Source of the DNA: Candidatus Omnitrophota bacterium | GTDB taxonomy: Bacteria; Omnitrophota; Gorgyraeia; Gygaellales; Profunditerraquicolaceae | NCBI GenBank assembly: GCA_016208765.1 | Contig: JACQXK010000038.1 | Coordinates: 14,955 to 78,954 of the forward strand | Length of the DNA: 64,000 bases | Direction of reading: 5' to 3' | Shown here: positions 43,835-64,000 of the stretch, piece by piece | Layout: the number at the start of each line of letters is the position of its first letter | Position numbering within the stretch: the first letter of the stretch is position 1 | Made by a program: the position numbers and the translations under genes | Notes under the pieces: generated by a model | What the model was told of the DNA's origin: nothing | What the model saw: only the letters and a program-made list of their open reading frames with translations | The model's database searches: none

Positions 43835-43860
43835 AACTCAGCCTCCTGATAAAAACGATA

Positions 43861-44298: not shown

Positions 44299-44326
44299 CT
44301 TACCAATCACCTCCCTTTAAATAAAG

Positions 44327-44704: not shown

Positions 44705-44727
44705 TTTTGCTCACCTCCTCTTAAATT

Positions 44728-44916: not shown

Positions 44917-44975
44917 TTTCTCACCTCCTTCACAATAAGTGAACACTTGCCTATCCAATAAGGCAAGGTGCCTTT

Positions 44976-45291: not shown

Positions 45292-45302
45292 TAGTATCTC
45301 CT

Positions 45303-45489
45303 TAAATAAAAAACCGACGTCTCTTTTACTTTCAAAGAAACCTCGGCTTTCGGTAACCCGGCTAATGCTCTCGCTCTTGACCTTAAAGCTTAAAGCAATG
45401 AAGACAAATCTTGCGAGCGTCATCCCGTGGCTTTGCGCATCCACCCCTCCAAGAGTGGAATTGCCTTTTCGTTGCCGCCCTTCAACTAC
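45303..45489 (-). promoter_or_regulatory. Leader L3 upstream of the flp array, sharing the 3' half of the L1/L2 leader
   Basis: Sense strand: ...GCGCAAAGCCACGGG...GCCGGGTTACCGAAAGCCGAGG...GACGTCGGTTTTTTATTTAAGGAGatactaATG. aaataaaaaaccg matches L1 exactly over 13 nt. Confidence 0.45.
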
Positions 45490-45495
45490 ATCATA

Positions 45496-45524
45496 AATAT
45501 AACATGCACAAACATGGGTGTCAA
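45496..45524 (-). promoter_or_regulatory. Sigma70-like promoter of the flp array (TTGACA, 17 nt spacer, TATATT)
   Basis: Sense strand: TTGACAcccatgtttgtgcatgtTATATT. An ATGTCC half-site abuts the -35. Confidence 0.5.
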
Positions 45525-45555
45525 GGACATTTCAGCTCAAACAGGAAAGCGCTTT

Positions 45556-47370: not shown

Positions 47371-47379
47371 GCTCTCTCC

Positions 47380-47450
47380 AGATTGGACATTTCCTCTACA
47401 ATATTACCATTTTTATGCGGCGTGTCAAGCTCTTTATAGATTGGACATTT
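47380..47450 (-). promoter_or_regulatory. Promoter of the HTH-protein gene (TTGACA, 16 nt spacer, TAATAT) flanked by two direct AGATTGGACATTT sites
   Basis: Sites at 47380-47392 and 47438-47450. -35 at 47423-47428, -10 at 47401-47406. Confidence 0.5.
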
Positions 47451-47793
47451 ATTCTTGAACAGCTAAGATATCACCAACTTGGGCTTGAGATGCGGAAATA
47501 CTGCCTGCGGAAAATTCTACAACATAGCGCGCCTGCCAGAAAATCGAGCTAAACTTAAACGGCTTAAGCGCAAAAAGCATAGCAACAACTTTGTAATTTT
47601 TGTCTAAAAAGAGCGCATCAATAGAGAAGCGCATAAAAAAGGTGTGAATTGAATTGCAGGGTTTAATTAATAACGCTGTATCTTGCGCCAAACTGCTTCT
47701 ACCCAGCAATCCCCTGGTCCTTGACCAAAAATTATCTGCAATAATCAGCTTCTGGGCAAGCACAATATTCTTAGTTTGATTTAGTAAGCGCAT
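47449..47793 (-). CDS. DUF192 (COG1430) family protein
   Basis: ...LIKPCNSIHTFFMRFSIDALFLDKNYKVVAM... matches the DUF192 core. Confidence 0.55.
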   Translation of the reverse strand: MRLLNQTKNIVLAQKLIIADNFWSRTRGLLGRSSLAQDTALLIKPCNSIHTFFMRFSIDALFLDKNYKVVAMLFALKPFKFSSIFWQARYVVEFSAGSISASQAQVGDILAVQE

Positions 47794-47797
47794 TTAG

Positions 47798-47823
47798 ATC
47801 CTTCGCTCGTTCAGGATGACGTC
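47798..47823. repeat. S-element copy 3 (reverse orientation) spanning the tadZ-tadA stop codon
   Basis: gatccttcgctcgttcaggatgacgtc. Confidence 0.6.
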
Positions 47824-49967
47824 TTAAAGACATCATCGGACAAAGCAATGCCTTTAATTTTAAGCTCTTGCACAAATGGAGGGATGTAACCGGTAGCCGT
47901 AAAATTTCCTAAAACCTTGCCCTGATTGTCAACGCCGGTCTGACGAAAATTAAAAACGTCTTTTAAGCCGATATGTACTTCGTCTTTCATGCCGCTCAAC
48001 TCTGATATTTGTATTATTTTACGCGTCCCGTCGCTAAGGCGGGCAGTGTGCACAATAATATGCAATGCAGAAGCAATCATCTCACGAATAGCCCTGATCG
48101 GAAGCTCTACTCCTGACATAAGGATCATAGAATCAAGCCTGACTAAAACATCCTGCGTAGAATTAGCATGCACAGTCGTCATAGAGCCGTCGTGGCCTGT
48201 GTTCATTGCCTGAAGCATGTCCAGGGTTTCTGCGCCGCGGCACTCTCCTATAACAATTCTATCGGGGCGCATACGCAGAGTGTTACGAAAGAGTTCACGG
48301 ATAGAAATCATCCCTTTCCCTTCAATGTTAGGCGGACGCGACTCTAACCTGATCCAATGCTCCTGGCTTAATTTAAGTTCAGCCGCATCTTCAATAGTAA
48401 CAATTCGCTCGGTATTTGGGATAAAAGCTGAGAGGATATTTAAAACCGTAGTCTTACCCGAACCCGTCCCACCGGAAACAATAACATTCTTTCTGGCGAC
48501 AACACACGCCCTGATAAAATCTGCCATTGCCTTACTAACAGAGTTCATGGCGATTAATTCTTCTATCTTAAATTTTTCTTTTCTAAATTTACGGATCGTC
48601 AGCGTCGGCCCGGTAAGCGCCAAAGGCGGGATAATCGCGTTTACGCGCGAGCCGTCGGCAAGGCGGCTATCCACCATCGGCACAGATTCATCAATGCGCC
48701 GGCCGGTAGGAGCAATGATACGCTCAATAATCGTTTTTACCTGATCATTAGAAATAAACTTTTTGCTGGTCAGCTCTATTTTTCCATGACGCTCAATATA
48801 CACTTCATCTTTGTTATTAACCATGATGTCGGTAATGCCGGGGTCTGCCAAAAGGTCTTCTAAAGGGCCCAACCCAAGCGCCTCATCAACTATTTCCTTG
48901 ATAAATTTGTTGCGCACCTCCATAGAAGAAATAAAACTGCCGGCCTCATCGGTGAGTAAGTTAGAAACAATTACTTCTGCTTTCTTCCTAAGCTCATGTT
49001 TTTTCACCGCGTCGCTAAAGATCTTGACGTCTAGCCTTTTAATATTCATTTCATCAATCAGGCGGTTATGGATCCGGCGTTTGATCAAAAGCACCTGATC
49101 GGTTTCTGCTGCCACCTCTTCCTCTTGCCCGGCAACGCTAACACCGAATTCTTTCCAAAATGCCGCAGGCTTCTCCAACTGCTCCTTACCTGCCTCAAGA
49201 GCCCCGATCTCTCTGTGAGAAGTATATAATCTTTCTTCAACGATAAGTTTGTGCGCGAATTTCTTGATTGCCTGAGAGATGCCGGATTTAGGCACATCTA
49301 CCACTACCGGAACGCGGCGGTTAATAGAAAGCCCGACGATTTTACCCTCTGAGGGCAGTGCCGCAATAATCTCGCTGGACAAATTAACCTGCAACTCTTC
49401 AAGGCTGATACTTGAAACAGATTCTGAACGGTTAATCACCACCTTGATCATCGTCAAAGGAAAATGCATTGACTGCAAAGTATCCACAACCCACTTCGTC
49501 TGGTATACAGATAAAATATCCGGAGTTACCAAAAGAAGGATCAAGTTTGACTGATTAATTGAACGCATAAATATTTCATTAAAACTCTTACCGGCATCAA
49601 TTACAACATAATCATAATCGCTGGCATATAATTTAAAAATTGTATCAATGCACTCAGGAGGCAAAATCGCGGCCTGTTGCGGTTTTAAAACCGCAGGAAG
49701 GAAATCAAAACCAAAAGCAGTATGCGTAATAAATGCCTGCTTTTCCGCATCAGCCTTTTGTCTTTTAATGGCTCCGGAGATATCAATCATTGATTTTTGC
49801 GGGCCAAGATTAAGCATCCTTGACAGATCCCCTACACCCTGCAAATCAAAATCCATTAACAAGACGCGTTTTTTCTCGTCGCGGGAAAGGCTCGCGGCAA
49901 GATTAGAGGCGACAAAGGTTTTACCCACTCCACCTTTTGTGCTGAATATTGATATTACCTTAGACAT
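47811..49967 (-). CDS. tadA: Fused TadZ/CpaE-like (MinD/ParA-type) N-terminal domain + TadA/CpaF secretion ATPase
   Basis: N-terminus MSKVISIFSTKGGVGKTFVASNLA (deviant Walker A). C-terminal part VSGGTGSGKTT...DRIVIGECRG...TGHDGSMTTVHANS (VirB11/CpaF Walker A, Walker B, His box). Confidence 0.8.
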   Translation of the reverse strand: MSKVISIFSTKGGVGKTFVASNLAASLSRDEKKRVLLMDFDLQGVGDLSRMLNLGPQKSMIDISGAIKRQKADAEKQAFITHTAFGFDFLPAVLKPQQAAILPPECIDTIFKLYASDYDYVVIDAGKSFNEIFMRSINQSNLILLLVTPDILSVYQTKWVVDTLQSMHFPLTMIKVVINRSESVSSISLEELQVNLSSEIIAALPSEGKIVGLSINRRVPVVVDVPKSGISQAIKKFAHKLIVEERLYTSHREIGALEAGKEQLEKPAAFWKEFGVSVAGQEEEVAAETDQVLLIKRRIHNRLIDEMNIKRLDVKIFSDAVKKHELRKKAEVIVSNLLTDEAGSFISSMEVRNKFIKEIVDEALGLGPLEDLLADPGITDIMVNNKDEVYIERHGKIELTSKKFISNDQVKTIIERIIAPTGRRIDESVPMVDSRLADGSRVNAIIPPLALTGPTLTIRKFRKEKFKIEELIAMNSVSKAMADFIRACVVARKNVIVSGGTGSGKTTVLNILSAFIPNTERIVTIEDAAELKLSQEHWIRLESRPPNIEGKGMISIRELFRNTLRMRPDRIVIGECRGAETLDMLQAMNTGHDGSMTTVHANSTQDVLVRLDSMILMSGVELPIRAIREMIASALHIIVHTARLSDGTRKIIQISELSGMKDEVHIGLKDVFNFRQTGVDNQGKVLGNFTATGYIPPFVQELKIKGIALSDDVFKTSS

Positions 49968-49970
49968 AAT

Positions 49971-51647
49971 TTACTCTAACTGATAGGAAATCGGGATATC
50001 CACCCATAATTCTTTAGTGCCGATTGTCGTAGGAAACGGAGGATACTGAGAAATCTGTTTTGCAACTTTTAAAGCGTTATCGTCAAGTATTTTATAGTTT
50101 GAGGAATTCTTAACCACGGCATCCAGCAAATCACCTTTGTAAGAAATAAGCAGGCTCAGTTGCACTGTCCCTTCAAACCCGGATTGCTTTGCTTGGGCAG
50201 GATAGGCTAAATTCTTCATAATCTTTTGTTTGATTATGCCTGTGTATTTTGCAACAGGGTCTAACGCATACTCGTCTGCAACTTCAACTGTAGAAGCAGC
50301 TTTTTTTGCCTGCTCCATGCTAATATCCATTTGTTTTGCATCTGGGGTTAACGGTTGTTGAGGTTTTTCGGCATCTGCAGGCTGCTCCTCGGTTTTCTTT
50401 TCCAAATAAGGAGTTTCCCTGCTGACAATCGTCGGGGTAATGATAATATATAATTCGGTATCTGCTTTCTGCCCTGTGCCGCCGCCGGTCTTGGTTACTC
50501 TTTTTCTAAAAGCTCCCCCAACCAAAGGAAGGTCCCCGAACCAGGGAACCTTGGTTACCTGTTCCTCGGTTTTCCTGCGCATCAGGCCGCCGATGGATAA
50601 TGTCTGCCCGTTCAACAGGAATAGCTCTGTTGAGGCATTGCGCTTGGTTAATGGGAATGCCTTTGCAGTAATGTTGGTCGCTGTGCCAAGAGTTTCCGCC
50701 TCGCCGTAATCGCTAACCTCCATTTTCACTCCCAACTTAATACGGTCATCGGGCATTACTGTTGGTTTCATCTTAAGCTTAATCCCAAATTCTTTATACT
50801 CAACTTCTGTGCCGGAAGAACCTGCTGTCGCCGCCACAGAAGTAGTGAGCACGGGCTTTTCTCCTCCGACGAGCAATTCAGCTTCTTTGCCGCTTTGACA
50901 GGCAAGCCGCGGACGGGAAAGAATCTTTGCCTTACCCTCCTCTATTAAAGCATCCAGCTTTAAGGTAAATGCGCTGTCTCGCTTAACATTTAAAAGCCTG
51001 AATACATTAGAAAATGCCGTACCACCAGCAGCCAAACCCGGAGAGCCTACTTCAGTAAGACTGACAGAACTCGGCCAGGTAACTCCGAGAGTTTTGCTTG
51101 CATCCTGATCAAGTTCTAAAACCTGCACATCAATTTCTACCACAGATTCTTCTTCGCGGACAGTAGTCAAATTTATTGTTTTTGCCATTAAAGGGCCGAG
51201 CGCCAAAGAAATTTTTTTAATGTCATCGTCGCTTTTTACCCTGCCTAAAAGCATTACCTTGCCTTCCTCATCAGAATCCTTTGTATATACCTCGGGAAGA
51301 TCTAAAGTTTCGAGCATGCTGTCTATTCTACGTTTAATATCCTTCATATCTTCTGTATAGACCCTTATTTCCTGTGACTTTTCTCCGGAAGCATCCCAAT
51401 AAAAAAGAGTAGTTGTGCCTCGGCCTTTGGCAGCAACAATGATAGTATCTTTGCTGACCTCTACCACATCAATTACCTGAGGGTTAGAAATTACTATTCT
51501 CGTCGGGTTAGAAGCAGAAATAGGCCGCGTGTCTCCGACATACATAACAAATTCCTCGCCTGATTTATCCGCAGCGCCCAAAACGCCAAAACAACATAAA
51601 ATTGCAAACCCCGACACAATAAAACTCTGCAAGATTCTTTTTGTCAT
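49971..51647 (-). CDS. cpaC: Tad secretin (RcpA/CpaC family) with C-terminal TonB-C-like domain
   Basis: Secretin core ...TLSIGGLMRRKTEEQVTKVPWFGDLPLVGGAFR...ELYIIITPTIV. C-terminus YPAQAKQSGFEGTVQLSLLISYKGDLLDAVVKNSS...LDDNALKVAKQISQYPPFP matches the TonB_C pattern. Confidence 0.75.
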   Translation of the reverse strand: MTKRILQSFIVSGFAILCCFGVLGAADKSGEEFVMYVGDTRPISASNPTRIVISNPQVIDVVEVSKDTIIVAAKGRGTTTLFYWDASGEKSQEIRVYTEDMKDIKRRIDSMLETLDLPEVYTKDSDEEGKVMLLGRVKSDDDIKKISLALGPLMAKTINLTTVREEESVVEIDVQVLELDQDASKTLGVTWPSSVSLTEVGSPGLAAGGTAFSNVFRLLNVKRDSAFTLKLDALIEEGKAKILSRPRLACQSGKEAELLVGGEKPVLTTSVAATAGSSGTEVEYKEFGIKLKMKPTVMPDDRIKLGVKMEVSDYGEAETLGTATNITAKAFPLTKRNASTELFLLNGQTLSIGGLMRRKTEEQVTKVPWFGDLPLVGGAFRKRVTKTGGGTGQKADTELYIIITPTIVSRETPYLEKKTEEQPADAEKPQQPLTPDAKQMDISMEQAKKAASTVEVADEYALDPVAKYTGIIKQKIMKNLAYPAQAKQSGFEGTVQLSLLISYKGDLLDAVVKNSSNYKILDDNALKVAKQISQYPPFPTTIGTKELWVDIPISYQLE

Positions 51648-51657
51648 TATTTTTCCT

Positions 51658-52611
51658 CTATTTATTGGATAAAGGCATTCTTTCTTTGTTTAAGCCCCGA
51701 TAAATCTCTACGAAACCTTTTTCTTCCCGCGGCTTTTCAGCTTCCACGTTAGAAGGAGTTATATAATTTAACAAGGTATCCCAATCAGCCGGCTTGGTTT
51801 TGTCAATCTGGGTATCTCCCGGAGAGCGCAGCACCAGCCTGATTTTTCCTTGTTCGTTAACAAACGATATTAAGTTCGCCTCTTCCGGAGAAAGCGCCAA
51901 TGTAATTAAAGGTGAAATGTCTTTCTTTTTGTCGCTGCCTTTGGATTTAAAAATCATTCCTGCTTGCGGAGATAAAATTTCATCTCCAACTGCCAGCACT
52001 AAAACGTTTTGAAATAAAGGCACAGTGCTTTTATCTTTTTGCTTTTCATTATCTTTTACGCCCATTGGCCCGCTGTTAGGCAGGGCAATAATAGCAATCA
52101 AATCCACAAAATCACCCGGCTTAATCATTCCTGCCAAAGAAGAGATATTGTCTACCGAAATCGTGATCGCCCTTTTCCCTGCGGGAGTAACTTCGGCTAA
52201 TCCGCTTTCTTTTTGGGTATATTTTTGCTTTCCGCCACCTTCTATCTGCGTGACCTTATTTGCAGTGATCTGTTCCCCTTTTAAAATATCTTCAATAACA
52301 CCCATTCCCGCTACTGCATCCATAGCTGTTGCCGCATTAGGACGGACATATTTTTCAGGGATTACTTGCGCAACAACCATAGAAGGATCTATAACTGTGC
52401 CGCGCGGAAGATCCTTATTTGCCACCAACACTGCCACCATAGAAGATTGTAAACGCTTAAATTCTTCTTTAGCGTTCTCTGTAACTTTTTTCTTTTCAGT
52501 CTCTATTAGATACTTGACCGTAAAGACAGTAACCACTGCCAAGACGATACTGATCAACACCATCGGGATTTTTTTCTGCATATTCTGCATATTATTTAAT
52601 TTCTCCCTCAA
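51658..52611 (-). CDS. cpaB: Flp pilus assembly protein CpaB/RcpC
   Basis: N-terminal TM followed by ...DLPRGTVIDPSMV... (SAF/CpaB). Operon position. Confidence 0.65.
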   Translation of the reverse strand: MREKLNNMQNMQKKIPMVLISIVLAVVTVFTVKYLIETEKKKVTENAKEEFKRLQSSMVAVLVANKDLPRGTVIDPSMVVAQVIPEKYVRPNAATAMDAVAGMGVIEDILKGEQITANKVTQIEGGGKQKYTQKESGLAEVTPAGKRAITISVDNISSLAGMIKPGDFVDLIAIIALPNSGPMGVKDNEKQKDKSTVPLFQNVLVLAVGDEILSPQAGMIFKSKGSDKKKDISPLITLALSPEEANLISFVNEQGKIRLVLRSPGDTQIDKTKPADWDTLLNYITPSNVEAEKPREEKGFVEIYRGLNKERMPLSNK

Positions 52612-53509
52612 TAATTTCTATTTTTGCTCCGCGGTTTAGCTGATCAATCATATTTTCCATTTTCTGCTGCTGCTTTAAAAATACGAGCGCGCGCTTAATA
52701 TCATCCCACATTTCAGACAATGTCTTTTGCTTACCCCCACGCTTACCTTCTAATTTAACAATATAATAACCGTCGGGGCCTTTAAATATGCTGCTGACCT
52801 TGCCGACTTCCAGCGAATCGGAGAAAGCCACTGTATCAAACTGTTCCGACTTTTTACCTCTCTGCAAATATCCAAGGTCGCCTCCGGATGCCGCGCTCTT
52901 TGCCCTTGAGCGATCTTTTGCAATAGTGGCAAAATCTGCTCCCTGCAAAAGCTGGATCATAATATCTTTTGCATCCTGCTCGCTGGGAACCATAATCTCC
53001 CTGATCTGCCGCTCTTCGGGTTCCTTCAGCTTATCTTTATACAAGTTATAATATTCTTCAATTTCTCCTGAAGTAACATCCACATTTTCGGTTTCTTTAC
53101 GCACAAGCTCTAAGACAAGCAGATTCTGTTTTGTTTTTTCAAGCGCCAAAAGAATGTCTTCTTTTTTATCAAGCCCTTGCTTTAATGCCTCCTGATATAA
53201 AAGTATCTGGCGGACCTTGTCATTTTTCAAATACTCAATTTTTTTATCACGGGTGGTGATTTTTAATTCCGGCTTATCTGCCGGGACGGAAGCATTGTAG
53301 GCCTCTATATCCTGATTCAGATCTTCAAGTGTAACCGCTGTGCCGTTAACCTTAGCTACTATCGGCCCCTTTCCCACAAAAGCCGTAGAAACAGAAGCAG
53401 ATTTTTTCGCCGGGCTCTTTTTTTGCTGCAACATCGGGAGCTTATCGCAACCTATTATTACCATGATAGCACAAAATAAAACTAAAAGGATCCTTCTGTT
53501 CATCTTCAT
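52592..53509 (-). CDS. PpiC-type peptidyl-prolyl isomerase lipoprotein (SurA/PrsA-like)
   Basis: Lipobox VIIGC. Parvulin motif ...QGADFATIAKDRSRAKSAASGGDLGYLQRGK...SSIFKGPDGYYIVKLEG. Confidence 0.65.
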   Translation of the reverse strand: MKMNRRILLVLFCAIMVIIGCDKLPMLQQKKSPAKKSASVSTAFVGKGPIVAKVNGTAVTLEDLNQDIEAYNASVPADKPELKITTRDKKIEYLKNDKVRQILLYQEALKQGLDKKEDILLALEKTKQNLLVLELVRKETENVDVTSGEIEEYYNLYKDKLKEPEERQIREIMVPSEQDAKDIMIQLLQGADFATIAKDRSRAKSAASGGDLGYLQRGKKSEQFDTVAFSDSLEVGKVSSIFKGPDGYYIVKLEGKRGGKQKTLSEMWDDIKRALVFLKQQQKMENMIDQLNRGAKIEIIEGEIK

Positions 53510-53521
53510 CCTCCTTTAAAA

Positions 53522-54215: not shown

Positions 54216-57200
54216 TTATTTAGATACAAAGTTTATACCGGCTAAACTTGATTGAAATTCTTCTCCTGTTTTTTCCGACTCAAGCGCAACTAAAAATTGT
54301 TTTAAACCGGTGTCTGTCGCGCAACATTCTTCTTCCTGCTTTCTTAATATATCTGCCATCAGGCTGATTACTTTATCTATTTCCTGATCAAAATTATTTA
54401 CAGCGCAACAATTAGATAAATACTCTTTAATTCTTTGCGCTGAAGGAGTAATTCCTCCATTGAACATCCTCTCAATTGCTTGCCATTCTTTGGCTAAAGA
54501 GCCATCCGTAGAGTAGAGGAGGTTTAAACCTCCTCTACTAACTGGTGACTGGTGACTGGTGACTGGTGACAGCATCCCCGGCTGTGTCACAATCGGCAAA
54601 ACGCGCATATCAATACCACCTTTTTTGTCCGCTGATGATGAAACAGGATACTCAGTATTAACCATCGCAATATTTTCAGCTTCCTTCTTTTTTCTAGCGT
54701 CAACTAAACTAACTACCTTAGGCGGACTTTGTAATGTCAAATTAACACCTAATATCTTTGCTGATTTTTCCCTGATAAGATTAATCTCATCTGTAATAAG
54801 CCCATAATCGGATTGAGAAATAATCTCTTCACCTCTAACCTCTTTTGCATATTTTGATATTATCGTAATAAAACGGTTTACTGCATTCCAAGCATCTTCA
54901 TTGCTTCCGGAAATATTAATCTCGTAGCGCGGTTGTCCAAAAATCTCGTTAAGCTCATCACGAAGCTCTTTAACATTATCCGAACTCAAAGTCGTGTTCT
55001 GCAATATATAATCCCCCAGATGCATTCTTAAAAGCAACAGCAAATCTTTTACCTGTTTTTTATCTACGTTCAATCTGACATCTTCTTGTCCCGCGCTTAA
55101 CGAATAATCCCGGTTTATATTTATCACAGGAGGATATTTTTCCACCGCCGAGGAGGCTGTCGCACCGGCTCCCGCATTAACGTTATCTCTTTCGGTTTTT
55201 ATATTACCTCTCGTGGCATTGAGAATCTGTGATAACAATAATACTGCAGAAGTATCCGCTGCCTGCTGATTATATTTATTCTTAAAACCTATATATGTAT
55301 TAAACGCTCTTGCACCAGCTGCCGCAGGGTCAGCCATGAGTTTCTTAAAATTTTGAAGACTAAATTTCAAAGCTCCTTTTCTTCTGGAAATAAAATCCTT
55401 AGCCGATAAATTAAACAACCAATCCCCAGGAAAATATAAAATTGGTTTTACAAGGCCTGCCGGCTCAAATATATTTCTATCTTCACCGACAATACACAAA
55501 TCTGCGATTGCAAACATTTTTAACAATTCTCCTGTTGTATAGAGAATCAAAACATCCTTTTCCGACATGTCTACAAACTTTTCCGTAGTTGTTCCCCGGA
55601 TTTCAACGATTTTGCTTGCGACCGTTTCAGGTAAACCACCGGGCCATTTTTCTCTTGGCGCAAAAATTAATAGCGGCCTATCCTGACGGGGTAGATTACC
55701 ATATAATTCATCAAATGCCTTAGCCACAGCATTTGCTTCGTGATAATAAGGAGAGCCCACAACAATAATTTTTCTCTTACCGACATTTAATTCTTTTTTT
55801 ATCCGGGCTGCTTCCTCAGAAGCCACAAATTCCTGCATACTGTGTTTAAAAGGAAAGTAGGGCAATGAAACAGAGGCGCCCACCTCTTTATCAACTCCGC
55901 GATGATCATGAAATTCTATCCAGATATACCTCCCATCATCCTGAACCTTGTTGGGCGCAACGAGCTTTTCTGCACGATAACCTGGAAATTCTTTTTCTAC
56001 AACTTCTTTTTCTTGGATATCCCCAAGAAAACTAAATTCGGCTGTGCCGCTATCCAAACCTAATGCTTCAATAAAACCTCTGGCGGCACGAAGCGAAGCA
56101 AACTCATAGGCGACAAACTTAATTTTTTTTCCGCTTAATTTTAAAGCATTTTTAAAAATACGGCCGATTGCGATGATTTGATCGCGGCCGACAGCCTCAT
56201 CTGGCCTGCCCAATTTATCAACTAACTTATTAAATAAAATTAACGCGAGATTCTCAAGTTCTGCCTGAGCATTTTCTTTGCCTATTCTTTCAGCGCCAAA
56301 AAAGACATTGCTGATTCGTAACAAATTTGCTTTGGTTTGCACAGAATTACCGACAACAACTATTTCATCTTTTAAGACAGGAAAGGCAGTCTCAAATAAA
56401 TCCACTGCGTTTTCTTTCGCCAATACACCGGCTTCTACAAGGGTCTCAAAATACCTATCAAAAAACTCCATCCCAAACTCTTTAACAAAAACCTGTAGGC
56501 TATCAATAAACAAGTTATTAGATTCTCTGCCGCTAGCCATAAGCAGAGAAACAAGGCCATTGCCAATTCTTTGCAGATTCTTGGTAGTTTTTTCTGCATC
56601 ATCTTTTACGACAATTAACTCTTTAAATATTACCAAACCCAACTCACACAGAACCCATGCTTCCTCGCCTGAAGATTTAAAAAGCTCAACAAGAACATTC
56701 CAATTTGTTTCCATAAAATGCTCTCCGTATGCTTTATAGAAAACTGGCAGGCTATTTGCAAATAAGAGAATGGCGTTTTCTCCGGAGCTCTGGGCAATCT
56801 CTACCAAGCTATCCCAATGTTTAGTGACAAAGGCCATGCCGACTTCTTTTGTTAACCTGGGTAAAGCAATACGGAATAGAGGGCTTGCTATTTTTTTATT
56901 AGCCCCACAGAACTCAACCAGTCTTTCAGAAATTCCTGTCAAAGAAAGAATTTGCTGAGTCTCTTCAGGAAGGTCATTAAATGAAATTTTTGTAAAAGTA
57001 AAGATTTCTTTATTATAATCTTCCCTGATTGAGCCTCCCACCGCCGATGAGGAAACGTTGGATAACTTAGGCTTAAATGCGATCGCCGCAGGAGAATTGT
57101 CTTTTTCATTTTCAAAAATAATTCTCTCAACTTCTTTCTTTCTATTTTTATAAATGTCAGCTATCAGTTCATCAACATAGGGAACCCTTTTTTCAATCCT

Positions 57201-60200
57201 CGCGCCAATATCGGGAAGCATAAAATCCACAAATAATATATAGCCGTTATCACCCAAAATTTCTTGCGCTTGGGCAATGTATTGCCATACATTCCAATTT
57301 TCATTCCCTATGCCAAGATTAACAGGAGCATATAAATTCATAAATTGCCACATGTTATAAAACACTACCACTACAGGGCCTTTTTGCAGTCCGAATCTTT
57401 CTTTTAAACTATCCTGAAAGTCATCTTCAAAAAAATCTTTTTTGAATATTTCACAGCCTTCTACAGCAGGAAGCGATGCGTTAGCGTCCACATTAATTAC
57501 CCGCCAACCTTTCGTAATAAGCGGGTTCCGGCCACTTCCAATATTTAAAATCACGCTACCCTTAGGAATCTTTAATTTCTCAAGAAATATTTCCAGGTTT
57601 TTTGAAGCCGCTTCCCTGTAATGGCCATTTAAATCATTGAGATGGGGCATTAGAGATACGCGTACGCACGAAGACACATCCTCCACCGCAGAGGAAGCGA
57701 CAGTATCTATATCCTTAGGAGCGAGCGAAGAATCAAGAGGCAGCTCAATAATCTTAGGCTCAACAGAAAGAACTTGGTTATTCAAAATATTAATCATTCT
57801 CCGGCATTCTTTTGTAAGAGCACCCTGAGCGTCATAATATGGCCTCAAACAATAAAGCTCGTCTCCTTTTTGCGAAATCGCTACCTGCCCACCAAGAGGT
57901 TCAAGATAATTTACCAGGGTATCTTCCTTATCTCTAAACCAAGCGGCAAATTCTCTTATTAACAAGTCTTCATTACCCGTATCATAATAAAGACTGAAAA
58001 ATGTTTTAATAAATTCTCTATTGGCTTCTGAAAGACTTAACCATAATTTTTTTAATTCAAGGCGGTAATCAGGATTAATAAAGTATTCCGCGTGATTTAA
58101 TTCATGTTCAACTGTAGCTTTTCCTGCGCCTTGATAGTAAGTTACAATAGCTATGTCAGGAGCGCCAATATATGTATGGCCTGTTCTCACAAGCAACCCC
58201 AGCTTTATTAATTCTTCTTTCATTCTTTCCTCTATGACGTTTAAAGACATGCCCTGTTGCGCTGCCAATGTAAAGAAATTTGCCATATCCTCCAACTTGA
58301 AATCATGGCCCAATGCTCCTTCACACCCAGTTTCTGCCAACTCTTGGTCAAGCCGGCTATCCGAAAGCAAGCCATTTTTCTGTTCTACAAAAAAACTAAG
58401 CCGGTCAAAGGCTAATCCTTGAAACGTAGACTTGTTAAATACGAAAAAGAATACCGGCTTAGAACCATACTTTAATAATCTGTAAAACTCACTTTCCCGC
58501 AGGTTAACATTCAAAATATCCTCTGCTTGCATAAAACTGGATAATACTTCAGAGGCCTGAAGAGGATATCCAGACAAAGATGTTTTTAACTCTTCCAATC
58601 TCCCCTCTTTAAAATACCTGTACCGGAAAGCTGGATCATATTTCAAACTCCTTGCCATCATGTCTCTGTAATAAATACTAGATTCCATGTTTTCTTTTAT
58701 AATTAATCTAAATTCTTTTGAATCAAGAAAATGTTTCAAAATATCTGCTACGGGTTTTACACTACCGTCTCCCTGTAGGATAGCCGGTGCAATAACGAGC
58801 ATTGCCCATAAAAGAATTCTTTTAATAACCCTATTAAAATTAATCATCTTATGATTTCCTGAAAGAATATTGGTTATTGTTGCCGATTCTGTTCCTTCCG
58901 CTACTGAAGAGTTAGCAGATTGCTTAATCGCCGAGGAGGCGACAGTGCTTTTGGCATGAGGCGTAAGCGAAGAATCAAGAGGCAGCTCAATAATTCTTTC
59001 TTCAACAGCAGGCGGGTTAACTTGCGGGCCTGGAAAAACACTTTCTTCCTCTTGCGGTTTTTTTGTTCCGCTAATCATGCCTTCAACGACATTCACCGAA
59101 ATTTTCTTTTCTTTGCCTTTGCCGTCGCCAAGAGTAGCCACCACTAAAACAATCGTATTCCCTTGGTGGATGAGAACAGTATTAGAGCAAGTTACATCTT
59201 TAAAATCATCCTCGGCAATGCCTAAACGCCTGCAGACCTCTTCTTTGCTCTTGATTAAAATATCTAAAGCATCAACTACGGCTTTTTGGGAAACTATATC
59301 CAAATTGCTATTATTCGTGCTCTTGAGCAATTCTAAACTTAGATTATGCGCCTGATATTCCACCTCAAGACGCGGTTTGCTATCAGGGCTTCCTGAATAG
59401 ATAACCATATAGGCAATATGCTGAGCCAGGGCCATAGCTCTTTCTTTCCTTCCCCCTTGCAGCCGGCTGAACCATTCCCACCCAACCACTATAATTGTAG
59501 TAAAAGAAGTTTTGCCGGAATTATACGTAGTTTTCGTCTGAAGAAAAGCCGTGCCATCCCCCATGCCTATTCCTTTCATAAAAAGAACCTGAAAATGATT
59601 ATTTTCATTTCTTAAAAAAGGTTCTTCCGGTAACTTATCCGCCAAATATTTGATGCTTTCCTCAACTAGCCCTGCGTGCTCATTAGATATTCTTATGGAT
59701 TGTTGCAGCCGTTCTTTTGTAACTCTGCCCGGGGCATACCTTTGCACAAAACCTAACAGCCTGTCTGAATAAACAATATCCTCTTGCTCATTGTTGTCAA
59801 AATCTTGCTGGCCTACCACTTCTCCCACTGTCTTTTTTATGCCCTCCAATGCCGTTGCGTTCATAGGCATAATGCCCAAGGCTGCTACAAAAGCAACCAA
59901 AGAAAGCAAGCCCGTCGCTGCTAACTTTTTCTTCACCGCCGAGGAGGCGAAGGATCCAGAGTAAGTAGCCCGATAGGCTTTTTCAAAAGAGCGCAATGCA
60001 ATATCAGAATACTTACCGAGAGACCTATACAGCTCAAAATACTCAGTCTCAATATTATCCTCTGAGACTTCGTTCAAGCTGTATACATTATTAAGATCAA
60101 CTCTCAACACTTCAGAGACCTTGTCATTTTCAACCCTGACAACAAATTGGCCAAGATGGGTATCCCCGGCGATTATTTCTTGATTATGAAGCGTGGCTAA

Positions 60201-63200
60201 AGTTATACCCAAAAACGCTCCCATCTCGCGCAGGAGATTCTCGCTATGCTGATGAACGGATATAAATTCTTTTACGTTTGGCCCGACCCAGTCAGAAACA
60301 AAAATAATCTTGCTTGATTGTGTCATCACTTCAAAAAACTGCTCTTTGTTTAATCCTAATTCACCTGCTACAGCATTATATTCATCCTCAGTACGCATCT
60401 CTACTAATTGCAACATATTTTCTTGTTGGGCGTTGCGTAAAATAGATAGCGTTTCAGAAGGCAAAAGTTGCTCATTCTTTTCTGAGAATGTAATTTTCTT
60501 CTGGGCTATCGTTGCTTCAACATCTAATCTTATCATCGGCAGGTAAACACGCAAAACCCGCGGCACAACCCTTTTACCTCCCGGAGTCCGTATTTGCAAA
60601 CTTAAACAATAGTTCTTAATACTTCTTGGATCAGGCGTTATGCCTCGCACATGCGCCTGTTTGTTATCCACAACCGCCTTAAAACCACTTTCTAATAACA
60701 ACGAATCAACTACTCTGCCTTTTGTTTCATTCACCGCCGAAGAAGCAAAATTTCTTTCACCTATAATTATCTTATCTCCCGGCCGTATATCGGGTATTTT
60801 TGAAAAAAGATTGAATCTGCCCTCGTCATTAACAACGGCATTTAATGCTCTTATTTTACCCGTACTTATTCTATACCTACGCCCAATCCCCCAAAGAGTG
60901 TCTCCTTTTCTCACCACGTGCCGAATCTCGAGAGGCAATCTCAGTTGCTGGCCTGCTTTAATTCTATGCATGCTGCGTAAACGGTTAATCCGGGCTAACT
61001 GCCCTGCAAGTTTTGCATTGCCATAATATTTAATTGCGATATGTCCCAAAGTATCGCGCGGCTTAACATCAATATATACATCTCCACGCTGCGGAGGTGG
61101 CTGAGCAAACTCTGGCGGCGGAATTTCAATGAACTTTTTAATCTCCATATCTAACAATCCCGGGAACCCGGCTGTGATAATTCCGAAAATTAAACCGGCT
61201 GCGATAATTCTAAAAATAGAGACAAGCCCTGATGTTTTTTCTTTATTCAAATGCTTTATCAAATTTATTCTTGGCGTTAAAAATAATTGGCTTGTAGGAA
61301 CCCTGTTATAATTAATAGGTTGAATATTATCTGATTCATCAAATTCAGGTACATTAAATTCAGGCCCATCATTATACGGCCCAGTAATTTCCTGATCCGT
61401 GATAGCTTCCACTGGCTGAGGCATCTTTGCATTGTAATAACCTAATTTTTGTAAAACTTTTTCTAAATCCCTGCGAACCGCCTCAGGTTTGCGGGTAACC
61501 CCCGATTCCCTATTTTCTAATGCTAATGCGCGCAATACTGCGTTAATTGTTTGTTGGTCTCTAAACAGCACCGGCAAGGTTAATTCCCTAAAAGCAGCAG
61601 AACGCACAGAATAGTCCTTATCTCTAATTAAGATTTCAACTAAAATTGGAGTTGAAAAACGATAATCAATCTTAGTAATTATTTTAATTATATCCTTTCG
61701 GACAGGAGATTTCTGGTCTTTTAGTCTATCGCGAAGCAGCTCTAAAGCAGGGTTACCTATGCGAATTAAAACATTTCCTATATTTTCATACCCAGAATCC
61801 CTATTCTCTAAAGCTGAAATAAGCTCAGGCACAGCAGCCTCTCCAATGCTGACCAAAATTTCAGCTGCGTCTTCCTTAATCGGACTGGACACTCCTTTTA
61901 GTAACGCGTCAATCAACGGCTTAACCGCCGGCTTACCAAAATTGGTTAAATCTTTGACAATAACTGTTCTTTCCTGAAAACCAAGTTTTTGGTTTAATCT
62001 GTCAATAAGCAACGAAATTACATAATCAACCCCGCCGTACTTAATTAAACCTTCAAGCGCGGCTTGGTGAACTCCCGGGTCATCATCTCTTAATAAGTTA
62101 AGTAAAATTAACACCGCAGGCTGAGGTACAATGTTTTTTAAAATATTATTACCGGCAAAAAATCCGTTCTTTTCTGAATATTCACGGACAGACCTGTCCC
62201 GCATAGCATTTTCTCTCAATGCCTGGCGCAAACCTTTGATTGAATATGGAGAACGCACCCAGCCAATCTGAACTGCTGCCCGGGCGACCTCCTCCCGGAC
62301 ACTCTTGTTTTCATCCCCGCTTAAATCAATTAAAACAGGAAATGCGGCAGGGTCTTTCATTTGAGCTAATGTTTGGACAACCTTTACGCGAATATCGGGA
62401 TTGGGATCATCGGCTAATCTCAGCAATGAATGTACTGCAATCCTGATTATTCCATCACGAAGAGGGGGGTCAGCCAGTTGAAGCAAAATATTCGTTATTG
62501 CTGAATAAACAGTTAAGCCGTGGTCAGGAAAATATTCTTCTGGAAACATTCTTTCTAAATCACGCAGTATCGTCAACAGATAATCTGTATTATTTCTTCC
62601 TCGCACAATTAATTCAATACGCGCAGACTCACGAGGAAGCAAACCTGCATATAAATCTTTAAGCAAAGGCCCGATGCTTGGATCGTCCGTTGCTGATAAT
62701 ATTGGAGAAGAGGAATTTACATAATTTCCAACCGCCGAGGAGGCGCTGGTACCTTTGACAGGTGCAATCGCGGAGCTTGCATTTTGTTTAGTTAGGGACG
62801 GTTCTGAAACATGCTTAAAAGTATCCCCCAGCGATGGCGCGGCTGCCGAAGAAGCACTATTTCTTCCCGCAAAAATAATTCCGCTATGTGCTTCAGCCTC
62901 TTTTGAACCTTCTCCATAGGCCTTAATAAACTCGTCCATCTCAGCAATGACTTCGTTTTCTAACGGAACCCCCTGAGAAAATAACCTTGCTTTAATTTTC
63001 TCTTTCTCTTGATAGGCTAAATTAAAATCAAAATGCGATAGTGCATCTGCAAAACTATCTATCAACGAAAGGTATTCTTTTCTTGAAGACGCCGCGTCAA
63101 AACTCCTTAACAAGAGAATCAGTTCATTAAAAATGTGCTCTCTAATCCTCTCCTTTTTAACAAATAATTCCACATAACCCTTGTCTTTTTCCTCCAGGCA

Positions 63201-64000
63201 AGCTTTTAAGTCCGGACGTTCATTTATAGCTATAAAAATACACCGTTTAAATTGACGTTTTAATTCTTCCAAAGATTTATCTAAGGTATCAACAGATTCC
63301 ATACGCCCATATTTATTTCCAAATTCAAGTTTATAATGGTCGGGGTATCCAGTAATAAGAACTTCTCGTCCTGCAAAAGCTATCGTTTCAAGTTCTTTAT
63401 CCACTGATGGCGAAGGCATTGTCGCAAGATCAAGATGAGTCTTGTTTCCTCGTTTCTTCATTAGCCAATCTATCTCGGATAATACAGAAGGGTCATTTTT
63501 ATAAGCCACTCTTAACGATAAGAGCGCTTCTTTGTCTCCTTCGTTTTGCAAAGTCTCCAAAGTTTTAGTCCAGTGATCAGAATGAGGATTAAAACAATTG
63601 ATTCCTTTCTTTCTCAGGGCTTCTTTATAGGCAATTTGCATATGCGGATTGTTTTCCCACCCCCAAAATTTATAATCAGGCAAATTATTTAACCCTGTTA
63701 AAGCCTTAAGATAGTCTTCAATGCTTGTTAAATCATTGTTCTCAACATAAAAAATTCTAGCTGTATCTGGTAGCGTAACATCGCCTAAGAAAAATGTATC
63801 GGTTTCATTAGCGCTTAAAAGATTGTTTTCTGTATTAGCCAAAACATCCCCAGCTGGAACAACAATAACATAGTTCATACCTGTCCAATCTCCTCCCATA
63901 GACAAAGTATTAACGTAATTATTAACTGAAAAATGTATTGTTTCTCTCCCCGGCTCACGATTAGGTATTAATTTCCCATTCTTTGGAAGCGCCTCGGCAT
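54216..64000 (-). CDS. Giant multidomain protein C, N-terminally partial (at least 3,260 aa; ORF is open to the window end)
   Basis: Track ORF 54216..63905 starts at an internal TTG. I translated 63906-64000 in frame (…EALPKNGKLIPNREPGRETIHFSVNNYVNTLSMGGDW) and found no stop, so the N-terminus lies beyond the window. Confidence 0.85.
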   Translation of the reverse strand, partial: AEALPKNGKLIPNREPGRETIHFSVNNYVNTLSMGGDWTGMNYVIVVPAGDVLANTENNLLSANETDTFFLGDVTLPDTARIFYVENNDLTSIEDYLKALTGLNNLPDYKFWGWENNPHMQIAYKEALRKKGINCFNPHSDHWTKTLETLQNEGDKEALLSLRVAYKNDPSVLSEIDWLMKKRGNKTHLDLATMPSPSVDKELETIAFAGREVLITGYPDHYKLEFGNKYGRMESVDTLDKSLEELKRQFKRCIFIAINERPDLKACLEEKDKGYVELFVKKERIREHIFNELILLLRSFDAASSRKEYLSLIDSFADALSHFDFNLAYQEKEKIKARLFSQGVPLENEVIAEMDEFIKAYGEGSKEAEAHSGIIFAGRNSASSAAAPSLGDTFKHVSEPSLTKQNASSAIAPVKGTSASSAVGNYVNSSSPILSATDDPSIGPLLKDLYAGLLPRESARIELIVRGRNNTDYLLTILRDLERMFPEEYFPDHGLTVYSAITNILLQLADPPLRDGIIRIAVHSLLRLADDPNPDIRVKVVQTLAQMKDPAAFPVLIDLSGDENKSVREEVARAAVQIGWVRSPYSIKGLRQALRENAMRDRSVREYSEKNGFFAGNNILKNIVPQPAVLILLNLLRDDDPGVHQAALEGLIKYGGVDYVISLLIDRLNQKLGFQERTVIVKDLTNFGKPAVKPLIDALLKGVSSPIKEDAAEILVSIGEAAVPELISALENRDSGYENIGNVLIRIGNPALELLRDRLKDQKSPVRKDIIKIITKIDYRFSTPILVEILIRDKDYSVRSAAFRELTLPVLFRDQQTINAVLRALALENRESGVTRKPEAVRRDLEKVLQKLGYYNAKMPQPVEAITDQEITGPYNDGPEFNVPEFDESDNIQPINYNRVPTSQLFLTPRINLIKHLNKEKTSGLVSIFRIIAAGLIFGIITAGFPGLLDMEIKKFIEIPPPEFAQPPPQRGDVYIDVKPRDTLGHIAIKYYGNAKLAGQLARINRLRSMHRIKAGQQLRLPLEIRHVVRKGDTLWGIGRRYRISTGKIRALNAVVNDEGRFNLFSKIPDIRPGDKIIIGERNFASSAVNETKGRVVDSLLLESGFKAVVDNKQAHVRGITPDPRSIKNYCLSLQIRTPGGKRVVPRVLRVYLPMIRLDVEATIAQKKITFSEKNEQLLPSETLSILRNAQQENMLQLVEMRTEDEYNAVAGELGLNKEQFFEVMTQSSKIIFVSDWVGPNVKEFISVHQHSENLLREMGAFLGITLATLHNQEIIAGDTHLGQFVVRVENDKVSEVLRVDLNNVYSLNEVSEDNIETEYFELYRSLGKYSDIALRSFEKAYRATYSGSFASSAVKKKLAATGLLSLVAFVAALGIMPMNATALEGIKKTVGEVVGQQDFDNNEQEDIVYSDRLLGFVQRYAPGRVTKERLQQSIRISNEHAGLVEESIKYLADKLPEEPFLRNENNHFQVLFMKGIGMGDGTAFLQTKTTYNSGKTSFTTIIVVGWEWFSRLQGGRKERAMALAQHIAYMVIYSGSPDSKPRLEVEYQAHNLSLELLKSTNNSNLDIVSQKAVVDALDILIKSKEEVCRRLGIAEDDFKDVTCSNTVLIHQGNTIVLVVATLGDGKGKEKKISVNVVEGMISGTKKPQEEESVFPGPQVNPPAVEERIIELPLDSSLTPHAKSTVASSAIKQSANSSVAEGTESATITNILSGNHKMINFNRVIKRILLWAMLVIAPAILQGDGSVKPVADILKHFLDSKEFRLIIKENMESSIYYRDMMARSLKYDPAFRYRYFKEGRLEELKTSLSGYPLQASEVLSSFMQAEDILNVNLRESEFYRLLKYGSKPVFFFVFNKSTFQGLAFDRLSFFVEQKNGLLSDSRLDQELAETGCEGALGHDFKLEDMANFFTLAAQQGMSLNVIEERMKEELIKLGLLVRTGHTYIGAPDIAIVTYYQGAGKATVEHELNHAEYFINPDYRLELKKLWLSLSEANREFIKTFFSLYYDTGNEDLLIREFAAWFRDKEDTLVNYLEPLGGQVAISQKGDELYCLRPYYDAQGALTKECRRMINILNNQVLSVEPKIIELPLDSSLAPKDIDTVASSAVEDVSSCVRVSLMPHLNDLNGHYREAASKNLEIFLEKLKIPKGSVILNIGSGRNPLITKGWRVINVDANASLPAVEGCEIFKKDFFEDDFQDSLKERFGLQKGPVVVVFYNMWQFMNLYAPVNLGIGNENWNVWQYIAQAQEILGDNGYILFVDFMLPDIGARIEKRVPYVDELIADIYKNRKKEVERIIFENEKDNSPAAIAFKPKLSNVSSSAVGGSIREDYNKEIFTFTKISFNDLPEETQQILSLTGISERLVEFCGANKKIASPLFRIALPRLTKEVGMAFVTKHWDSLVEIAQSSGENAILLFANSLPVFYKAYGEHFMETNWNVLVELFKSSGEEAWVLCELGLVIFKELIVVKDDAEKTTKNLQRIGNGLVSLLMASGRESNNLFIDSLQVFVKEFGMEFFDRYFETLVEAGVLAKENAVDLFETAFPVLKDEIVVVGNSVQTKANLLRISNVFFGAERIGKENAQAELENLALILFNKLVDKLGRPDEAVGRDQIIAIGRIFKNALKLSGKKIKFVAYEFASLRAARGFIEALGLDSGTAEFSFLGDIQEKEVVEKEFPGYRAEKLVAPNKVQDDGRYIWIEFHDHRGVDKEVGASVSLPYFPFKHSMQEFVASEEAARIKKELNVGKRKIIVVGSPYYHEANAVAKAFDELYGNLPRQDRPLLIFAPREKWPGGLPETVASKIVEIRGTTTEKFVDMSEKDVLILYTTGELLKMFAIADLCIVGEDRNIFEPAGLVKPILYFPGDWLFNLSAKDFISRRKGALKFSLQNFKKLMADPAAAGARAFNTYIGFKNKYNQQAADTSAVLLLSQILNATRGNIKTERDNVNAGAGATASSAVEKYPPVININRDYSLSAGQEDVRLNVDKKQVKDLLLLLRMHLGDYILQNTTLSSDNVKELRDELNEIFGQPRYEINISGSNEDAWNAVNRFITIISKYAKEVRGEEIISQSDYGLITDEINLIREKSAKILGVNLTLQSPPKVVSLVDARKKKEAENIAMVNTEYPVSSSADKKGGIDMRVLPIVTQPGMLSPVTSHQSPVSRGGLNLLYSTDGSLAKEWQAIERMFNGGITPSAQRIKEYLSNCCAVNNFDQEIDKVISLMADILRKQEEECCATDTGLKQFLVALESEKTGEEFQSSLAGINFVSK
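54540..54568. repeat. (ACTGGTG)x4 perfect heptanucleotide tandem repeat inside gene C
   Basis: Encodes LSPVTSHQSPVS; paralogous to the array at 9403-9451 in gene A. Confidence 0.85.
55500..56000 (-). other. KdtA/WaaA-like (GT30) glycosyltransferase domain in protein C
   Basis: KRKIIVVGSPYYHEANAV...LPRQDRPLLIFAPREKWP (compare THEGEE...LILVPRHPERF) and ...IVGEDRNIFEPAGLVKPILYFP (compare GGHNPLEPAALGKPVIFGPH). First segment verified from nucleotides. Confidence 0.45.
57480..57580 (-). other. Methyltransferase-like motif I in protein C (KGSVILNIGSGRNPL...VINVD)
   Basis: Verified PKGSVILNIGS from nucleotides. Weaker than the motif set in protein A. Confidence 0.3.
58082..58140 (-). other. HExxH motif in protein C (KATVEHELNHAEYF)
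   Basis: Verified from nucleotides. Confidence 0.35.
60750..61080 (-). other. Two tandem LysM domains in protein C
   Basis: Verified YIDVKPRDTLGHIAIKYYG...AGQQLRLP and HVVRKGDTLWGIGRRYRISTGKIRALN...PGDKIIIG. Confidence 0.7.
61600..62500 (-). other. HEAT / PBS-lyase-like repeats in protein C
   Basis: ...DPNPDIRVKVVQTLAQMKDPAAFPVLIDLSGDENKSVREEVARAAVQIG... and further similar repeats. Confidence 0.5.

Follow-up and report, generated by a model that had tools for sequence, protein, structure and literature searches.

Introduction

Giant proteins of Omnitrophota bacteria, known as Archaeovorins, combine HEAT repeats with glycosyltransferases (GT5 and GT1), methyltransferases, hydrolases and peptidases, and are encoded beside secretion or pilus genes (West-Roberts et al., 10.1101/2023.11.21.568195). 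Long Omnitrophota proteins have also been classed as "multi-enzyme metabolic clusters" (10.64898/2026.06.07.730766). Here, we describe a large open reading frame (ORF), ORF C, at one end of a 64,000-nucleotide stretch of a Candidatus Omnitrophota contig (JACQXK010000038.1, positions 14,955 to 78,954; the whole of this stretch is referred to as the window), and in particular a glycosyltransferase (GT) module within it that sequence profiles and a structural model relate to family GT30.

ORF C resembles the Archaeovorins in its Omnitrophota origin, its HEAT, GT and (at low confidence) methyltransferase-like modules, its three hydrophobic helices and its adjoining pilus genes. It also differs from them in several respects. 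The threshold used for Archaeovorin giant genes is at least 20 kb, or ~7000 amino acids (aa), whereas ORF C has at least 3439 aa and is partial at the contig end. The GT types reported for Archaeovorin-type proteins are GT5, GT1 and group 1, whereas that of ORF C is GT30-like. With regard to the Archaeovorin peptidase, ORF C has only a bare HExxH motif, while a C39 domain is found in the neighbouring ORF A (at least 8943 aa). Furthermore, the first of the two preprints (10.1101/2023.11.21.568195) does not mention LysM domains, and this literature reports no cleavage motif.

An earlier note on this DNA, written from the sequence alone, had considered a lipid-A-core-type glycosyltransferase inside a LysM-bearing protein of more than 3,200 aa to be undescribed. 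This was too broad a claim, as giant proteins of Omnitrophota with GT, methyltransferase, peptidase and HEAT modules have already been published; a GT inside such a protein is not new, because both preprints describe it. What is found neither in those two preprints nor among Pfam or NCBI names is a GT30-derived family with a truncated acceptor lobe.

[quoted passage not shown] These enzymes, WaaA/KdtA (PRK05749; PF04413; structures 2XCI/2XCU from Aquifex aeolicus and 4BFC from Acinetobacter baumannii), share with the GT module the GT-B fold and the residues of the cytidine monophosphate (CMP) site. WaaA, however, is a membrane-associated enzyme of ~425 aa, whereas the GT module sits inside multi-module proteins and scores far below the family cut-offs, and the WaaA pocket for lipid IVA (the E98/E100/W102 segment) is absent from it. 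According to PMC6286764, which draws on Schmidt et al. 2012, the CMP site of A. aeolicus WaaA has R212 and N273 on the phosphate and E276 on the ribose, with G248 forming part of the pocket for cytosine; the base is proposed to be E31, and W102 contacts the acyl chain. [quoted passage not shown]

A second point of comparison is the O-GlcNAc transferase (GT41), in which a TPR superhelix is followed by a GT-B catalytic domain. The resemblance, a solenoid together with a GT, is one of analogy, with no specific sequence relationship. The donor site of O-GlcNAc transferase is of the uridine diphosphate (UDP) type, whereas that of the ORF C module is of the CMP type, and unlike the pairing in O-GlcNAc transferase, the solenoid and GT modules of ORF C are not consistently paired across homologues.

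Results

Relationship of the GT module to GT30

ORF C and the parts of its GT module are located as follows.

54216..63998, minus strand: ORF C, with its stop codon at 54216-54218, at least 3260 further codons inside the window and no in-frame stop up to 63998
55254..56156, minus strand: predicted GT30-derived, GT-B glycosyltransferase-like module, residues ~2615-2915
55824..56132, minus strand: its reduced N-terminal (acceptor-side) Rossmann-like half, residues ~2623-2725, with E2632, D2660, D2698 and the invariant K2718
55314..55823, minus strand: its C-terminal, nucleotide-sugar-binding half, residues ~2726-2895, with R2782, G2823, N2842 and E2845
55641-55670, minus strand: LIFAPREKWP, residues 2777-2786, in the C-terminal half
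55428-55484, minus strand: EDRNIFEPAGLVKPILYFP, residues 2839-2857, in the C-terminal half

Profile comparisons and a structural model identify residues ~2615-2915 as a true GT-B domain with two lobes, which derives from the GT30 Kdo transferases and belongs to an unannotated sister family. Four NCBIfam sub-models of WaaA (PRK05749.1-4, -5, -1 and -2) match residues ~2728-2865 with E-values from 2.5e-8 to 0.018. For the best of these matches, the score is 32.9 bits, where the curated cut-off is 438, and the aligned part is limited to profile positions 220-357 of 425, which correspond to the C-terminal lobe. When residues 2317-2948 were used as the query in an exhaustive phmmer search of 1.84 billion representative proteins (E<=1e-3), 165 matches were obtained, and among these are four canonical KdtA proteins of ~420-430 aa (P0138, P0145, P0147 and P0150; E 4e-6 to 6e-5), which carry PF04413 at E ~1e-55 and align to the GT module through their C-terminal lobes.

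The GT module was then cut from 71 of the matches and aligned with that of ORF C to give a family of 72 sequences. Its profile matches a profile of the four KdtA proteins over the full length, with a probability of 99.9% and an E-value of 4.9e-31. Furthermore, a 16-member profile compared with all PDB sequences retrieves exactly two entries, both of them WaaA: 4BFC (E 1.7e-4) and 2XCI (E 2.7e-4). The segments LIFAPREKWP and EDRNIFEPAGLVKPILYFP, which the earlier note had read as the two signature regions of GT30, are indeed the counterparts of the P211-R212 and N273/E276 regions of WaaA.

Structure prediction points in the same direction. An AlphaFold2 model of residues 2606-2915, based on an alignment of 16 sequences, has a mean predicted local distance difference test score (pLDDT) of 89.7 and a predicted template modelling score (pTM) of 0.84, and comprises two beta/alpha lobes and a long C-terminal helix. 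In a Foldseek comparison with the PDB, A. aeolicus WaaA comes first (2xci, E 1.2e-8), and in second place stands the domain of A. baumannii WaaA that binds CMP-Kdo (4bfc); the further matches are other GT-B enzymes, among them TagF, WaaG, HepE, GT9, MurG, OtsA and EarP. Hence, the modelling that had been proposed as a check on this region returned a GT-B fold, with a GT30 enzyme as the closest solved structure.

The alternative named at the outset was a chance similarity of two short segments, with no glycosyltransferase fold behind it. Such a reading could draw on two negative results. Pfam assigns no glycosyltransferase family to the whole of ORF C or to the GT segment alone, with no match to PF04413 even at E<=10, so that the suggested HMMER check against PF04413 and Glycos_transf_1 was negative; and single-sequence phmmer with the GT module finds no match in the PDB. 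The Pfam result, however, is due to the coverage of the models and not to the absence of the fold, and all tests that use profiles or structure contradict a chance match: the predicted fold is GT-B, and the similarity extends over the domain. We therefore consider it refuted. In two other searches, a word-indexed homologue search found no relatives with the 632-aa segment and 4 proteins only with the family profile, and a scan of the GTDB representative genomes for the GT module found none.

At least 108 proteins besides P0001, the database copy of ORF C, carry the GT module. They were counted by running phmmer locally with just the module on the 150 proteins that the exhaustive search had listed; these members are cluster representatives at 50% identity. 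They are mostly large, up to about 5100 aa, and those with a source name are called "hypothetical protein [Candidatus Omnitrophota bacterium]". Eleven stand-alone members of ~315-365 aa have no Pfam domain, and one of them (P0055) is a hypothetical protein from a metagenome-assembled genome (MAG) of Candidatus Margulisbacteria. Pfam HEAT repeats occur directly upstream of the GT module in three of the nine larger members tested (P0008, P0020 and P0022), while P0004, P0008 and P0047 contain the GT module together with C2, the C-terminal module of ORF C. Since P0008 (794 aa) consists of HEAT, GT and C2, the arrangement of the last ~950 residues of ORF C exists also as a smaller protein.

Donor site and acceptor lobe

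Residues of WaaA were mapped onto the GT module by profile-profile alignment, by alignment of the PDB profile to 2xci and 4bfc, and by column counts in the family alignment.

WaaA R212: ORF C R2782, conserved in 62 of 72 family members
WaaA G248: ORF C G2823, conserved in 71 of 72
WaaA N273: ORF C N2842, conserved in 69 of 72
WaaA E276: ORF C E2845, conserved in 71 of 72
WaaA K162: ORF C K2718, conserved in 71 of 72

By this alignment, the donor (CMP) site of GT30 is intact in the module. Given that these residues are conserved although the family members are otherwise only 25-40% identical, the donor site is under strong selection.

The acceptor side presents a different picture. The N-terminal lobe has ~100 aa in the GT module against ~180 aa in WaaA, and a stretch of ~95 residues in KdtA (positions of roughly 105-200, with the E98/W102 segment among them) is not represented. 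From the GGSLVxxGGHN loop of WaaA, 6 residues are lost, and the loop reads GxDRN in the module. As the pocket for lipid IVA is lost, an acceptor of the lipid A type is argued against. Three strands have acidic residues at their ends, namely beta-1 (E2632 column, 45/72), beta-2 (D2660 column, 52/72) and beta-4 (D2698 column, 47/72), and ORF C has all three. These strand ends are presumed to face the cleft.

These features bear on whether the module could be a true WaaA/KdtA, one that attaches Kdo to lipid IVA in making the cell's own LPS and has been fused by chance into a long protein. The best match in both sequence and structure is WaaA, and the residues that bind CMP are retained; judged by its fold and donor site, the module passes as a WaaA. 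It fails on the N-terminal domain, on the catalytic Glu and on the family score: PF04413 is undetected, in contrast to its E-value of ~1e-55 in real KdtA proteins, the best NCBIfam score lies more than 400 bits under the curated cut-off, the ~105-200 region with its E98/W102 pocket is missing, E31 is replaced, and the GGSLVxxGGHN loop carries its 6-residue deletion. We regard a true WaaA as highly improbable. The KdtA/GT30-like domain of the earlier note thus survives as a predicted GT30-derived GT-B domain but not as KdtA proper (no PF04413, 33 bits vs 438, truncated acceptor domain, catalytic Glu lost).

Proposed activity

The reading that we favour, with a probability of roughly 0.55, is that the GT30-derived module transfers a CMP-activated acidic sugar to an acceptor other than lipid A, within an Archaeovorin-like protein. 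According to this proposal, which is built on alignments and models, the module would bind an acidic sugar activated with CMP, be it Kdo or an ulosonic acid related to it, and would pass the sugar to an acceptor that is most plausibly a protein or a soluble glycan, presented by the neighbouring alpha-solenoid (HEAT-like) modules. A protein or scaffolded acceptor would be analogous to the TPR and GT-B arrangement of O-GlcNAc transferase. One of the moderately conserved residues E2632, D2660 and D2698 would serve as the base, and the Arg or His that precedes the conserved Asn (DRN in ORF C, GHN in WaaA) would retain a positive charge at the donor site. The reaction would take place on the cytoplasmic side, the module being one unit of a multi-enzyme Omnitrophota protein that is encoded beside a Tad pilus locus. 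It may also be freed as a separate polypeptide by cleavage at flanking [AS]SSA[VI] motifs, which are discussed below.

Several observations weigh against this proposal. The column of WaaA E31 holds Ser in ORF C and S34, A12, D9, G6, T4 and E3 in the family, such that it is acidic in only 12 of 72 members. The candidate replacement bases are just 60-70% conserved, so that the module may have a non-catalytic binding role. The gene neighbourhoods of the family members P0055 and P0151 consist of housekeeping genes, with no sugar-nucleotide genes and no clue to a pathway. Finally, if ORF C is uncleaved, its three hydrophobic helices, which come from a simple hydropathy scan, would put the GT and methyltransferase-like modules on the same side of the membrane as LysM.

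Because the WaaA base is not conserved, non-catalytic nucleotide binding is the main rival. Here, the GT30-derived fold would act as a module for binding, sensing or scaffolding with CMP, a CMP-sugar or another nucleotide. The prevalence of Ser, Ala or Gly in the E31 column (Ser in ORF C itself), the ~95 residues gone from the acceptor lobe and the lack of any invariant acidic residue in the N-terminal lobe would all fit such a role. It is harder to reconcile with donor-site residues and a K2718 that are almost invariant in 72 otherwise divergent sequences, or with the acidic residues at the ends of beta-1, beta-2 and beta-4, which are present in 60-70% of members and all present in ORF C. In inverting GT-B enzymes, the position of the base varies, which also counts against a non-catalytic domain. 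We therefore hold this rival to be a real possibility, though rather an unlikely one.

Topology and the [AS]SSA[VI] motif

The hydrophobic segments of ORF C are as follows.

61170..61226, minus strand: hydrophobic helix 1, residues 925-943, which separates the HEAT array from the LysM domains
59844..59948, minus strand: ASSAV at residue 1351 and signal-like segment, with KKK following at once, then a 19-aa hydrophobic core (helix, residues 1359-1377) and PMNATALEG
58773..58940, minus strand: ASSAI at residue 1687 and hydrophobic helix 3, which lies 37 residues on (1724-1742) and has a positive N-flank

In all three helices, the positive flank is on the N side. Since consecutive helices of one chain cannot all have a positive N-side flank, the helices do not fit a single uncleaved chain. 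LysM domains normally act outside the cytoplasm, whereas S-adenosylmethionine (SAM) and CMP-sugars are found inside; a placement of LysM and the GT and methyltransferase-like modules on one side is awkward for this reason.

The same evidence bears on a further rival, in which the uncleaved protein is an exported or injected effector that carries its GT, methyltransferase-like and HExxH modules outside together with LysM and acts on the envelope of a prey or host, as the earlier note had suggested, or inside the prey. With three hydrophobic helices, LysM and GT would indeed share a membrane side; the gene adjoins a Tad pilus/secretin locus, and a role in predation has been proposed for Omnitrophota giant proteins (10.1101/2023.11.21.568195). 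However, CMP-sugars and SAM are not available outside the cytoplasm, the N-side positive flanks of the helices are unfit for a single chain, and the acceptor pocket of the lipid A type is missing. An effector is thus unlikely in our view.

The motif [AS]SSA[VI] occurs ten times in ORF C (residues 382, 407, 419, 1085, 1351, 1687, 2101, 2316, 2948 and 3120), and SSAV alone occurs six times against 0.08 expected. ORF A contains 12 to 15 matches, depending on the looseness of the pattern, between residues 3291 and 6571, while ORF B, the third large ORF of the window, contains zero. In ORF C, copies of the motif stand at the borders of modules that recur independently: 1085 after LysM, 2316 before the helical module, 2948 after GT and 3120 before C2. 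They are candidates for processing sites or for signals within linkers. The codons of the motif are unusually uniform and GC-rich in ORF C (GCC TCC TCG GCG GTG), whereas those in ORF A are varied, with Val mostly encoded by GTA. On the strength of the ORF A codons, a repeated DNA element or an internal GTG start was set aside as the origin of the motif.

Some copies are followed by what could be targeting signals. The segment after the ASSAV at 1351 looks, from its sequence, like a Sec signal peptide with an AxA-like site. In the homologue P0014 (5094 aa, nine copies of the motif), the SSSAV at 1400 precedes NNEGI-SRRKFLK-TMGVATAGVVAS, so that a twin-arginine signal consensus lies well inside the protein (1400-1430). 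Further internal signals resembling those of twin-arginine translocation (Tat) are found at residue 2098 of P0109 and residue 1177 of P0119. The internal twin-arginine sequences of the homologues read SRRKFLK, SRRDFLK and NRRDFLK, each before a hydrophobic stretch, and one of them directly after SSSAV.

C39-type domains have been proposed to process Omnitrophota giant proteins, the cleavage points being not known (10.1101/2023.11.21.568195). We tentatively suggest that ORF C and ORF A are polyproteins, and that [AS]SSA[VI] marks processing sites at which modules with their own targeting would be released; this is possible, even if the balance is somewhat against it. In such a polyprotein, fragments with Sec or Tat signals (the module after 1351, the HExxH module and the Tat-signal module of P0014) may be exported, and the methyltransferase-like and GT modules may stay in the cytoplasm with SAM and CMP-sugars. 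It should also be noted that signal-like segments follow just two of the ten copies in ORF C, which makes for weak statistics, and that the motif is present in only 8 of 45 close GT-module homologues; both speak against the polyprotein.

Other modules of ORF C

The remaining features of ORF C are as follows.

61419..62471, minus strand: HEAT repeat array, residues ~510-860 (Pfam HEAT_2, E 6.4e-26, 5 stretches)
60825..61088, minus strand: two LysM domains, residues ~971-1058 (PF01476, E 1.5e-15, 2 stretches)
59955..60407, minus strand: kinase-like region of the Bud32/RIO type, residues ~1198-1348, with weak matches to three NCBIfam Bud32 models (E 5e-4 to 3e-3, well short of the cut-offs)
58092..58106, minus strand: HELNH (HExxH), residue 1965, one occurrence against 0.047 expected by composition
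57054..57683, minus strand: class I SAM-methyltransferase-like module (low confidence), residues ~2106-2315, in which motif I reads VILNIGSGRN and VINVD supplies the acidic residue that follows beta-2
56169..57032, minus strand: module of alpha-helical repeats, residues ~2323-2610, which directly precedes the GT module
54219..54641, minus strand: C-terminal module C2, residues 3120-3260, beginning SSSAD-KKGGIDMRVLPIVTQ
54541-54570, minus strand: heptanucleotide tandem repeat in C2, CACCAGT on the coding strand, 4.3 copies with 100% identity, encoding SPVTSHQSPV

Of the modules that the earlier note had listed here, the HEAT repeats and the two LysM domains are confirmed by Pfam (for LysM, 57.3 bits against a gathering cut-off of 20.9), the methyltransferase-like fold holds with low confidence, and HExxH is a bare motif. 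The module around this motif has no sequence relatives in Pfam, NCBIfam or the PDB, and a metalloprotease is not established. For the methyltransferase-like module, Pfam Methyltransf_23 matches at E 0.027, under the cut-off, and single-sequence phmmer finds nothing in the PDB. A single-sequence model (pLDDT 60.7, pTM 0.63) nevertheless shows the expected strand order, and its top 50 Foldseek matches are all class I SAM methyltransferases (best E 7e-5). A methyltransferase fold at residues 2106-2315 is therefore supported by the model, with low confidence.

The Bud32-kinase matches of residues ~1198-1348 serve as a lead only; for module 1085-1350, single-sequence phmmer against the PDB gives only matches at chance level (E 0.42). 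In the former region, AGDTHLGQF...RVDLNN is similar to HGD...N / DFG, the catalytic pattern found in small ATPases of the protein-kinase-like type. The alpha-helical repeat module upstream of GT is independent of it, as it recurs in 42 other proteins and is found together with the GT module in just one other.

The C2 module follows the pattern GGID[FLM]-x-x-LPIVTQ ... EW..I...GI.PS..RIKEYL ... DILR.EEE, that is, a GGIDxRxLPIVTQ part and then a helical part. It has no match in Pfam or NCBIfam, but six other large proteins (P0004, P0008, P0040, P0047, P0088 and P0146) conserve it at their very C-terminal end, and it may be a signal for sorting, secretion or assembly. In several homologues, an [AS]SS[AP][VIL] motif precedes a GGID[LF] segment near the C-terminus. 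The heptanucleotide-repeat stretch is absent from the C2 homologues. Given that 7 nucleotides are not a multiple of three, a change in copy number would shift the frame; the repeat could reflect slippage or phase variation, or else a recent insertion. The same CACCAGT repeat is present in ORF A at 9409-9454 (6.6 copies, 79%), and SPVTSH[QL]SPV is encoded in both ORFs.

Genomic context

All large genes of the window lie on the minus strand. Those apart from ORF C are as follows.

~35600-53515, minus strand: Tad/Flp pilus cluster, between the giant ORFs, with ORF C coming after it
27549-35084, minus strand: ORF B, 2512 aa, with one weak hydrophobic segment
1-26829, minus strand: ORF A, at least 8943 aa, running off the left edge of the window

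An exhaustive HMMER search identified P0001 (MBI4707624.1) as 100% identical to ORF C and 179 residues longer upstream, for a total of 3439 aa. Its NCBI entry is a partial "HEAT repeat domain-containing protein" from a Candidatus Omnitrophica MAG, on a contig of 79,490 bp. An exact-sequence look-up of contigs gave nothing for P0001. In the window, TTG at 63905 is merely the first start-like codon of ORF C, and the frame stays open to the edge. The missing N-terminus, which the earlier note had wished to see recovered, is extended by P0001 but not completed: as P0001 begins GTVPD..., with no Met, at the end of its contig, the true N-terminus is missing also from the public record.

The scanned part of the Tad cluster (38.2-53.5 kb) encodes a SurA-like peptidyl-prolyl isomerase, CpaB/RcpC, a secretin fused to a TonB C-terminal domain (TonB_C) and a TadE/G-like pilin; several of its ORFs, of 166-604 aa, have no Pfam match. 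Our impression is that the secretin-TonB_C fusion is unusual. The cluster also encodes a 718-aa fused TadZ(ParA-like)-TadA(T2SSE) ATPase. The closest relatives of this neighbouring TadZ/TadA-type ATPase are encoded by two Candidatus Omnitrophota MAGs, with identities of 54% and 52%, which agree with Candidatus Omnitrophica as the source taxon. A tblastn search of ORF C against two locus files around homologues of the Tad ATPase (80 homologues returned) found only its own contig, and no conserved synteny emerged.

In ORF A, Pfam at E<=1e-5 detects only Peptidase_C39 (residues 215-301) and one LysM domain (~residue 7630). About eight hydrophobic helices are clustered at residues 6619-7081. No paralogue of the GT module was found in ORFs A and B, and BLAST detected no module shared between them and ORF C.

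Biological implications

A delimiting motif that is joined by signal-like segments bears on a question stated for giant genes, namely whether their proteins are cleaved, and where. Should the polyprotein proposal be true, [AS]SSA[VI] would provide a sequence rule, the first of its kind, by which giant proteins of Omnitrophota are divided into functional units. The GT30-derived module would then exist as a free enzyme with a length of about 630 aa, and might be a protein glycosyltransferase.

The GT module itself illustrates that part of the "dark" sequence of giant proteins is assignable by exhaustive profile search and structure prediction. The family to which it belongs has no Pfam model, and its members are named by NCBI as "hypothetical" or only by "HEAT repeat". 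On the evidence of the alignments, it is a sizeable sister family of GT30 that keeps the CMP-sugar site but in which the lipid A-binding lobe is replaced. For Omnitrophota and at least one Margulisbacteria MAG, this would imply a chemistry of CMP-ulosonic acids that is directed at another acceptor.

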